Source: Escherichia coli
Lineage (GTDB): Bacteria > Pseudomonadota > Gammaproteobacteria > Enterobacterales > Enterobacteriaceae
Assembly: GCF_044647545.1 (NCBI RefSeq)
Contig: NZ_CP172818.1
DNA length: 64,000 nucleotides
Reading direction: 5' to 3' (one strand)
The notes under the pieces: model-generated
The model's input: only the letters and a program-made list of their open reading frames with translations
The model's database searches: none
Told to the model about the DNA's origin: nothing
Made by a program: the position numbers and the translations under genes
Shown: piece by piece, positions 4,237-10,182 of the stretch
Position numbering within the stretch: position 1 is the first letter of the stretch
Layout: every line of letters begins with the position of its first letter

Positions 4237-5046
4237 TCACCCCTGCAATATTTTGTCCATCACGCGCCCCGGCAGCAGGCGCTTAAGCACCATTACTGCC
4301 CAGGTCACCAGCGTTACCGGATAGCGCATCTTCGGCTTCTCGCTAATAAAAGCATGGCGCACTTTGTCGACCACCGCTTCCGGTCCTAACGTAAAGCGGG
4401 CGGCGATGCCGGGATTTTCGACTGGTTTATCACTTTGCGTCTGGTTGACGTTGTCGGTGAAGCGAGTACGAATGGGACCAGGTTCGATCAGGCTGACTTT
4501 AATTCCGCTGTGGCGCAGCTCCATGCGCAGTGCGTCTGACCACGCCTCCAGCGCATATTTACTGGCCGCGTAAGCGCCACGACCCGGTGTGGAGATTAAT
4601 CCCATCACCGATGAGGTCATCACAATACGCCCTTCACCGTGCGGCAACATCGCGGGTAACAGGCGCATGGTGAGCTGGTGTGCGCCGAAAAAGTTGGCGG
4701 AAAACTGCTGTTCCATCTGCGCACGGCTGATGGTGGAAAGGGGGCCATACATGCCGAATCCGGCATTGTTAAAGATCCCATACAGACAATTATCGGTCAG
4801 GGCGATCACTTCGTCGGCTGCGCGATCAACACATTCTGGCGAATCCAGATCGATCAACACGCCGGTAAATCCCATGCTGTTCATGCGCTCAACATCATCC
4901 GCTTTCCGGCAACCTGCCAGCACATGAAAACCCTGGCGTTTTAATTCGAGCGCGCTTTCCAGGCCAATTCCACTGGAACATCCGGTAATTAAGACCGATT
5001 TTTGCATAACTTTACCTGTCAGGATCTCCGTTGCTTTATGAGTCAT
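4237..5046 (-). CDS. ybbO: Short-chain dehydrogenase/reductase YbbO
   Basis: TGCSSGIG Rossmann motif and YAASK catalytic motif. Confidence 0.85.
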   Translation of the reverse strand: MTHKATEILTGKVMQKSVLITGCSSGIGLESALELKRQGFHVLAGCRKADDVERMNSMGFTGVLIDLDSPECVDRAADEVIALTDNCLYGIFNNAGFGMYGPLSTISRAQMEQQFSANFFGAHQLTMRLLPAMLPHGEGRIVMTSSVMGLISTPGRGAYAASKYALEAWSDALRMELRHSGIKVSLIEPGPIRTRFTDNVNQTQSDKPVENPGIAARFTLGPEAVVDKVRHAFISEKPKMRYPVTLVTWAVMVLKRLLPGRVMDKILQG

Positions 5047-5662
5047 GATTTACTAAAGGCTGCAACTGCTTCGCCATCCAGTCGGCAATAAACGGCTGGG
5101 CGTCGCGGTTGGGATGAATACCGTCATCCTGCATCCATTGTGGTTTGAGGTAGACCTCTTCCATAAAAAAGGGCAGCAGCGGAACATCAAACTCTTTGGC
5201 GAGTTTGGGGTAAATGGCGCTAAAGGCTTCATTATAACGGCGACCATAGTTTGCAGGCAGACGTATTTGCATTAACAATGGTTCAGCGTTGGTGGCTTTG
5301 ACCTCCTGCAAAATCTGGCGCAGCGTTTGCTCGGTTTGTTGTGGCTGAAAACCACGCAAACCGTCATTGCCGCCCAGTTCAACCAGCACCCAACGCGGCT
5401 GATGCTGTTTCAGCAGAGCCGGAAGGCGCGCCAGCCCTTGTTGCGAGGTGTCGCCGCTGATGCTGGCATTGACTACCGACGTTTTACTCTGCCACTTATC
5501 ATTCAACAAGGCAGGCCAGGCCGCGCTGGCAGACATTCGATACCCGGCGCTCAGGCTATCACCCAGAATCAATAACGTGTCCGCTGCAGCGGCACGGAAG
5601 GTTAACAGGACCAGGAACAGGAAGGGCAAATGCCAGCGGAAAACATTGTTGAAGTTCATCAT
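5036..5662 (-). CDS. tesA: Acyl-CoA thioesterase I / lysophospholipase L1 TesA (SGNH hydrolase)
   Basis: Signal peptide then GDSLSAGY SGNH motif; start chosen at MMNFNN. Confidence 0.9.
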   Translation of the reverse strand: MMNFNNVFRWHLPFLFLVLLTFRAAAADTLLILGDSLSAGYRMSASAAWPALLNDKWQSKTSVVNASISGDTSQQGLARLPALLKQHQPRWVLVELGGNDGLRGFQPQQTEQTLRQILQEVKATNAEPLLMQIRLPANYGRRYNEAFSAIYPKLAKEFDVPLLPFFMEEVYLKPQWMQDDGIHPNRDAQPFIADWMAKQLQPLVNHDS

Positions 5663-6312
5663 CTTAAGAAGTCCGTCGGTCAGGGGGAGCATGAACTCTC
5701 CATCCTCACCGGAGTTGAGCTGGTTGTCAAACGTGGCGAGACCATCGCGCTGGTGGGCGAGTCGGGATCGGGTAAGTCAACCTTGCTGGCGATCCTCGCC
5801 GGGCTGGATGACGGCAGCAGTGGCGAAGTAAATCTGGTGGGACAACCGCTACATAATATGGACGAAGAAGCGCGGGCAAAGTTACGCGCGAAGCACGTAG
5901 GTTTTGTTTTTCAGTCATTTATGTTAATTCCTACCCTTAACGCGCTGGAAAACGTCGAGCTTCCGGCGCTGCTGCGCGGTGAAAGTAGCGTGGAAAGTCG
6001 TAACGGGGCAAAAGCGTTGCTCGAACAGTTAGGACTGGGTAAACGTCTGGATCATCTTCCGGCACAGCTTTCCGGCGGCGAACAGCAACGAGTGGCGCTG
6101 GCGCGAGCTTTTAATGGTCGGCCTGATGTGCTGTTTGCCGACGAACCCACCGGCAATCTTGACCGCCAGACGGGCGATAAAATTGCCGACCTGCTGTTTT
6201 CCCTCAACCGTGAACATGGCACCACGTTGATTATGGTGACCCACGACCTGCAACTGGCGGCACGCTGCGACCGCTGCTTACGGCTGGTGAACGGGCAGTT
6301 GCAGGAGGAAGC

Positions 6313-6316
<4 letters not shown>
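5630..6316 (+). CDS. ybbA: ABC transporter ATP-binding protein YbbA
   Basis: Walker A GESGSGKST and LSGGEQQR motifs; divergent from tesA. Confidence 0.85.

Positions 6317-10182
<3,866 letters not shown>

Follow-up and report, generated by a model that had tools for sequence, protein, structure and literature searches.

Conserved head-to-head overlap of the divergent tesA and ybbA genes in Escherichia coli

The divergent genes tesA and ybbA meet at their 5' ends on opposite strands of the E. coli DNA analysed here, a stretch of 64,000 nucleotides that we refer to as the window. Positions 5000-6400 match 5418 of 5426 complete genomes, several at 100% identity, and thus represent ordinary E. coli chromosome; both genes together are 98.1% identical to those of K-12, and 5589-5748 is without any difference. 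The following features, those of tesA and ybbA being supported by both the open reading frames and RefSeq annotations, make up the locus:

4237..5046, minus strand: ybbO, downstream in the tesA-ybbO operon; its start overlaps the 3' end of tesA by 11 nt (5036..5046)
5036..5662, minus strand: tesA coding sequence, for periplasmic thioesterase I / protease I / lysophospholipase L1
5630..6316, plus strand: ybbA coding sequence, for the 228-aa ATPase subunit of the type VII ABC transporter YbbAP
6313..8708, plus strand: ybbP, the permease partner of YbbA; its ATG shares bases with the ybbA stop codon (ATGA, 6313..6316)
5630..5662, both strands: head-to-head coding overlap, YbbA residues 1-11 against TesA residues 1-11

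The minus-strand reading frame of tesA reads MMNFNNVFRWHLPFLFLVLLTFRAAAADTLL... (longer stretch, MMNFNNVFRWHLPFLFLVLLTFRAAAADTLLILGDSLSAGY...) and runs to a stop codon at 5036, giving 208 aa from Met1 (codon 5662..5660) or 207 aa from Met2 (codon 5659..5657). Its product matches Pfam Lipase_GDSL_2 (E=3e-29, 103 bits against a cut-off of 32.9) and Lipase_GDSL (96.6 bits), and the presence of the catalytic serine block ILGDSLSAGY places it among the SGNH (GDSL) hydrolases. From Ala27 onwards it differs by two substitutions from its closest PDB chains, 1IVN, 5TIC and 9GE8_T (E about 1e-120). Because mature TesA starts at Ala27 (ADTLL) in all PDB entries, a signal peptide of 26 residues (1-26) is predicted, consisting of an n-region in which Arg9 is the sole positive charge, a hydrophobic core (LPFLFLVLLTF), and AAA before and A after the predicted cleavage site; leaderless 'TesA is defined by the absence of the N-terminal 26 residues (PMC3428649). 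On the plus strand, the frame from 5630 reads MPAENIVEVHHLKKS... (longer stretch, MPAENIVEVHHLKKSVGQGEHELSILTGVELVVKRGETIALVGESGSGKS...), with MPAENIVEVHHLK as the N-terminal peptide of YbbA. This protein matches Pfam ABC_tran (E=7e-34, 117.8 bits), aligns over residues 1-228 to PDB 9GE6_B with two substitutions and, with its ABC_tran domain and the coupled FtsX-domain permease gene ybbP, belongs with the MacB-like ATPases. The 3' end of ybbP is aberrant in this window beyond about 8708.

The original prediction placed a 33-bp opposite-strand overlap of the two coding regions at 5630-5662, and the same interval is recovered from both reading frames; it is identical in RefSeq MG1655, where tesA (519139..519765, minus strand) and ybbA (519733..520419, plus strand) likewise share 33 bp. 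If tesA starts at Met2, as called by PGAP in strain FDAARGOS_497, the overlap is 30 bp (5630..5659). The antisense register is exact: first codon positions of ybbA lie opposite third positions of tesA, second positions lie opposite each other, the CAT of tesA His11 is the reverse complement of the ybbA ATG (5630-5632), and the CAT of ybbA His11 is the reverse complement of the tesA Met1 ATG (5662-5660). Because of this register, no synonymous change in one frame would be silent in the other.

Support for both starts comes from 80 orthologous loci, one genome per species, ranging from Escherichia to Cedecea, Siccibacter and Dryocola and encoding TesA proteins 86-99% identical; with the window and K-12 they form a comparison set of 82 sequences, 81 of them in register. 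All but one of the 82 show the same geometry, the exception (L038) having a 1-nt frameshift at the ybbA start that is probably an assembly error. Among the 81 in-register loci, the ybbA ATG and the tesA Met2 ATG are both invariant (81/81 each), and tesA Met1 is ATG in 64 and ACG in 17 (the ATG tally becomes 65 when L038 is counted). The change of Met1 from ATG to ACG goes with YbbA His11 to Arg in 17 of 17 cases, a single base altering both proteins. There is no upstream alternative start for ybbA, because its frame opens just 24 nt upstream of 5630, at TAA 5603-5605; in E. coli and most of the other loci the frame contains no second ATG, GTG or TTG from this stop codon to at least +90 nt. The comparative evidence for translation of both frames from mutually embedded starts is therefore strong. 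By this measure neither start looks mis-assigned, and Met2 is the universally available start of tesA, with Met1, and hence the 33-bp overlap, a possible start in E. coli. The original prediction had posed an either/or, with each promoter located within the opposite gene or else a wrongly assigned start; the invariance of both starts tells strongly against the second option.

Three alternative starts were weighed against this assignment. In the first, tesA would begin at codon 12, a TTG (5629..5627), so that the genes abut and MMNFNNVFRWH is an annotation artefact. This TTG is exactly the first tesA codon outside ybbA, and an abutting ancestral state is made plausible by distant relatives whose starts abut or nearly do so (0, -2, +13 bp). 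Such a start is nevertheless highly improbable, as the codon varies: the Citrobacter freundii group has TGG (Trp) there, a few loci have GTG, L019, L026 and L034 have no start codon, and the more distant L083 has CTT. Met2, upstream of it, is invariant in 81 of 81 loci. In addition, TesA residues 2-11 (MNF..VFRWH) are conserved as protein, no SD-like sequence lies upstream of the TTG, and, as a real initiation region predicts, synonymous sites are frozen ahead of Met1. Signal peptides characteristically carry a positively charged n-region; the 15-residue signal peptide left by initiation at codon 12 would lack this region, Arg9 included. This candidate was thus rejected, on its poor conservation and the invariance of Met2.

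A second alternative removes the overlap from the other side, by placing the true ybbA start further downstream. We give this next to no credence: all that favours it is the general fallibility of computational start calls, and the E. coli frame has no further ATG, GTG or TTG between 5630 and at least +90 nt. To clear the overlap, YbbA would have to begin at codon 12 or beyond and would lose its conserved first beta-strand (IVEVHHLKKSV), which is kept in distant homologues. The present ATG and its Shine-Dalgarno-like sequence AGGAAGGG are invariant. The downstream start was likewise rejected on conservation.

The third alternative enlarges the overlap to 63 bp, with tesA starting at an upstream ATG at 5692 (MLPLTDGLLKMMNFNN..., 218 aa). 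The mechanical minus-strand frame does reach 30 nt farther, to this ATG (MLPLTDGLLK-MMNFNN), which is where the ORF listing opens; TesA versions of 218-220 aa occur in some database entries, and many species have a start codon at tesA -30. We consider its use hardly credible, since the -30 codon varies among ATG, GTG and TTG and is a non-start in six loci (L012, L032, L046, L048, L055 and L062), and the frame opens only at -33 in several species. A start at 5692 would also bring an acidic residue into the n-region of the TesA signal peptide, and is used by neither MG1655 RefSeq nor PGAP. Its absence from the six loci led to its rejection on conservation.

With the starts placed at the ybbA ATG and at Met1 or Met2 of tesA, the sequences that would serve initiation of each gene fall inside the other:

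5619..5626, plus strand: purine-rich, Shine-Dalgarno-like AGGAAGGG of ybbA, embedded in tesA codons 13-15
5663..5685, minus strand: tesA initiation region / 5' leader, CTGACCGACGGACTTCTTAAG directly before ATGATG, in ybbA codons 12-19

Conservation of these regions was measured as entropy from ungapped stacks of the loci, with positions given relative to the ybbA ATG. Third-codon-position entropy is 1.1-1.2 bits in the bodies of tesA and ybbA and falls to 0.13 bits in the 33-nt overlap, read in either frame; the lowest 11-codon windows away from the starts reach 0.83 bits in ybbA and 0.70 bits in tesA. Low values continue on both sides of the overlap, with 0.38 bits at ybbA +33..+57 (the tesA initiation region), 0.5-0.7 bits in ybbA out to about +104, and 0.52 bits at tesA -15..-1 (the ybbA Shine-Dalgarno). 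Nucleotide identity between pairs of loci averages 94% in the overlap and 79-80% in the gene bodies. Bases -11..-8 and -5..-3 relative to the ybbA ATG are invariant in 81 loci, tesA third positions included, and AGGAAGGG is also kept in the more distant locus L083. For tesA, the upstream Shine-Dalgarno is a weak GGA, which L083 has lost. Together, the low entropy and high identity are the signature expected of two functional initiation regions. With geometry identical in 81 of 82 sequences and synonymous sites almost frozen, the overlap is, as far as comparison of sequences can tell, more than a chance extension of reading frames.

An overlap of 30-33 bp leaves no intergenic DNA, and both promoters must for that reason be intragenic; this half of the original either/or, that the promoters lie in the partner gene, thus stands on the negative intergenic distance. 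Two elements are candidates:

5702..5730, minus strand: predicted tesA promoter, -35 TTGACA (5730..5725), 17-nt spacer, -10 GAGGAT (5707..5702)
5251..5288, plus strand: element ending at a Cappable-seq transcription start site (TSS), U00096.2 518615 = window 5288, with TTGCAG-N17-AACAAT upstream

The predicted tesA promoter lies inside ybbA codons 25-34. All 81 loci share its -35 hexamer and flanks without change, even at three ybbA synonymous sites in a row; its -10 is AAGGAT in most genera, and TTGACA-N17-AAGGAT is found also in L083, whose TesA is 69% identical. Only 3 of the 6 bases of the -10 fit the consensus, and a scan of 5200-6100 on both strands for consensus promoters and terminators returned nothing, the tesA candidate falling below the -10 threshold. 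We predict that TTGACA-N17-(A/G)AGGAT is the tesA promoter, with a TSS at about 5694-5697 and a leader of about 33-36 nt. Folding of this leader RNA is no better than that of shuffled sequences (z = -0.01), and no Rfam family matches 4800-9400 at E<=1.

For ybbA, the TSS at window 5288 is the nearest plus-strand one in the published Cappable-seq list, 342 nt upstream of the ATG and within tesA. Its placement uses an offset of +776 between U00096.2 and U00096.3 at this locus, which we take to be correct and which is consistent with the promoter-like context at window 5288. The Cappable-seq plus-strand TSSs are 518388 and 518615, then none until 523635, and the score of 518615 is low, at 2.45 (PMC4782308); directed TSS mapping in 2009 (Mendoza-Vargas) gave no product for ybbA (PMC2760140). 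The candidate promoter (5251-5279) is largely Escherichia-specific, with a -10 that is poorly conserved outside Escherichia, and synonymous-site conservation in tesA identified no conserved ybbA promoter. The 5288 TSS may thus belong to a weak antisense promoter confined to this lineage and not to the main or ancestral promoter of ybbA.

More distant relatives, with TesA proteins of 41-69% identity, were surveyed as representatives together with their contigs. A divergent operon encoding an ABC ATPase and an FtsX permease adjoins tesA in every one examined, the FtsX-domain permeases lying downstream of the ATPase gene, and the tight head-to-head layout is kept where TesA identity is 41-53%. 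The spacing between starts is -33 bp in L083, -2 bp in L084-L086 (which share a CATG), 0 bp in L087-L089, +17 bp in L090, +25 bp in L091, -8 bp in L092 and +13 bp in L093/L094. The frames of L087, L090 and L091 open within 3-18 nt of the called starts, which makes the near-zero spacings of these loci robust. YbbA N-termini are equally long everywhere, with 2-6 residues before the first beta-strand; compared with the TesA signal peptides of the distant relatives, the enterobacterial one has about 7-10 extra residues. On the simplest reading, the head-to-head layout would be ancient and the 30-33-bp overlap would have arisen in Enterobacterales by 5' extension of tesA, with about 10-11 codons added to the signal-peptide n-region at ancestral start codons that abutted.

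Taken together, tesA and ybbA very probably form a genuine, evolutionarily fixed head-to-head overlap at the heads of two divergent operons, tesA-ybbO on the minus strand and ybbA-ybbP on the plus strand, whose products assemble into a single envelope machine, the YbbAP-TesA complex. Over its first 10-11 codons each gene is antisense, in codon register, to the first 10-11 of its partner, with each ribosome-binding region inside roughly codons 12-19 of the partner and the overlap bases doubly constrained and nearly invariant across Enterobacteriaceae. On this geometry each promoter lies in the coding sequence of the partner and fires towards the other. If K-12 ybbA transcripts start, at least in part, at the low-score TSS 342 nt upstream in tesA, the two promoters would point at one another from about 410 bp apart, with mRNAs complementary over up to about 400 nt. 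Should both assignments hold, facing promoters and complementary mRNAs fit the listing of this pair as an excludon. The pair could then act as a divergent excludon, in which collision of RNA polymerases, cleavage of RNA duplexes by RNase III, or both, would couple the levels of TesA and YbbAP.

The overlap could be real without any regulatory role, a frozen accident in which a shifted start codon made the TesA signal peptide longer and double coding constraint alone accounts for the high conservation, with the antisense transcription as noise; we regard this as possible, if somewhat doubtful. Sequence change is presumably tolerated in signal-peptide n-regions and ahead of the first strand of an ABC ATPase, which would make this a permissive site for overprinting; distant relatives function at spacings of -8 to +25 bp, the TSS mapped for ybbA is weak and lacks conservation, and the tesA leader shows no significant RNA structure in a region without an Rfam family. 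Against such a reading, synonymous-site conservation extends to about +104 in ybbA and includes the invariant TTGACA, which points to selected non-coding signals; the tight layout is retained at 41-53% TesA identity; and the transcripts overlap in 50% or more of the 58 RNA-seq samples analysed (PMC12288877). These observations argue for embedded expression signals and fall short of proof of reciprocal regulation. At the other extreme, the facing promoters and the antisense overlap of about 400 nt might be a selected device, setting TesA:YbbAP stoichiometry or switching between free periplasmic and transporter-bound TesA, which we think unlikely. If it were so, the TesA signal-peptide extension would have been fixed because it locks both initiation regions together, and transcription or translation of one gene would occlude the promoter or ribosome-binding site of the other.

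A genuine, fixed overlap has practical consequences. It is not an annotation error, and annotation pipelines should therefore leave it unrepaired. Edits within 5619-5730 would alter two genes or their expression signals together, among them tesA deletions and the leaderless 'tesA constructs common in fatty-acid engineering; a clean deletion of tesA that includes its first codons also takes out the YbbA start. With TesA and YbbAP in one complex, the ancient tight arrangement is a small extra argument for their functional coupling.

The overlap itself is already known, being annotated and remarked on in two papers of 2025. The description of the YbbAP-TesA complex in PLoS Biology names tesA-ybbO as an operon, states that the two operons partially overlap, and reports similar arrangements in other Gram-negative bacteria (PMC12646458). 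The K-12 pair, tesA (b0494) and ybbA (b0495), encoding the complex in PDB 9GE6-9GE8, is the same locus with the same 33 bp, and there is no difference in the overlap between it and the window. What we add is a comparison that supports both starts, the footprint at synonymous sites, a predicted tesA promoter and a proposed evolutionary origin. The second paper, on ExcludonFinder (NAR 2025), lists tesA-ybbA as one of 16 divergent excludons in MG1655, where a pair enters the core excludome if its transcripts overlap in at least half (50%) of 58 RNA-seq samples from MG1655 (PMC12288877), so that published data, together with the Cappable-seq TSS, provide the transcript overlap that marks this class. 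The putative promoters of tesA and ybbA sit inside the partner gene and fire towards each other, the geometry that an excludon needs; divergent excludons have been framed as overlaps of 5' UTRs (PMC12288877), whereas here the coding sequences overlap too. The mutual exclusion associated with excludons would be unexpected for TesA and YbbAP, which are subunits of one complex, and the pair offers a tractable case for asking whether divergent excludons coordinate their partners rather than exclude them.

Gene overlaps in general are classed as unidirectional, convergent or divergent (PMC3887535). Like short opposite-strand overlaps in other prokaryotes, that of tesA and ybbA is short and conserved and appears to stem from the shift of a start into the neighbouring gene. 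Head-to-head overlaps are reportedly the rarest class, as Fukuda in 2003 and Johnson and Chisholm in 2004 are said to have found. Compared with short opposite-strand overlaps, tesA-ybbA is unusual in that it is fixed family-wide and its products physically interact.

Within the 33-bp head-to-head overlap of tesA (minus strand) and ybbA (plus strand), the two coding sequences vary in step across the orthologous loci. One base substitution at window 5660..5662, in ybbA codon 11, changes both TesA and YbbA: YbbA His11 CAT->CGT (Arg) accompanies every tesA Met1 ATG->ACG (Thr). Other differences are likewise matched, with the YbbA NIV / NIL / NSV / IVA variants going with the TesA FNN / FKY / FNT / CNN variants.

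Comparison loci with tesA Met1 ACG and YbbA Arg11
L009, L013, L023, L025, L028, L030-L033, L035-L037, L041, L049, L068, L073, L080

Two comparison records were irregular. In Citrobacter amalonaticus AUH_CA_2023_1 (L038), a one-base frameshift around the ybbA start codon breaks the otherwise universal register; the likeliest cause is an error made in sequencing or assembling this genome. Another record, titled 'Chryseobacterium sp. 18061' (L055, CACSKA010000001.1), carries an enterobacterial tesA-ybbA locus on an 800-kb contig, with a TesA 88% identical to that of E. coli; it probably represents a mislabelled or contaminated assembly.

Further into ybbA, at the predicted minus-strand tesA promoter, the entire spacer between the -35 and -10 elements (minus strand TCAACTCCGGT) is invariant, even at ybbA synonymous sites, as is the GGA that follows the -10 element.

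Invariant bases at the predicted tesA promoter
5699..5718, ybbA codons 24-30: invariant spacer and post-(-10) bases

Such invariance exceeds what a sigma-70 promoter alone would need, and the segment could be a binding site for a regulator. At the other end of tesA, a second, weak plus-strand Cappable-seq TSS (score 1.55) maps to window 5061 (U00096.2 position 518388), near the tesA stop and the ybbO start and antisense to both genes.

The ybbP 3' end and the DNA downstream of it (window 8709..9031) are unlike the closest genome (L095), in which a 583-bp stretch (413-995) is found that is absent from the window. In its place are ~320 nt rich in G and A, including the homopolymers G7 and A12, through which the usual YbbP C-terminus (..GKALFRQFAG*) is lost and the ORF lengthened to 957 aa (6313..9186). 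Window 8705-8990 had no blastn matches among 5426 complete E. coli genomes. The altered end has the look of an artefact, whether of assembly or of sequence, or else of a replacement specific to this strain.

The tesA frame of many species runs on upstream without a stop for as much as 777 nt, antisense to ybbA, and over-extended TesA proteins of 286-402 aa are found among database entries.

Over-extension of tesA
Loci with a long open upstream frame: L010, L013, L023, L031, L047, L051, L053, L059, L079
Over-extended TesA database proteins: P0002, P0006, P0044, P0045, P0121

Evidently, gene callers are misled here because the ABC ATPase gene has few stops in its antisense frame.
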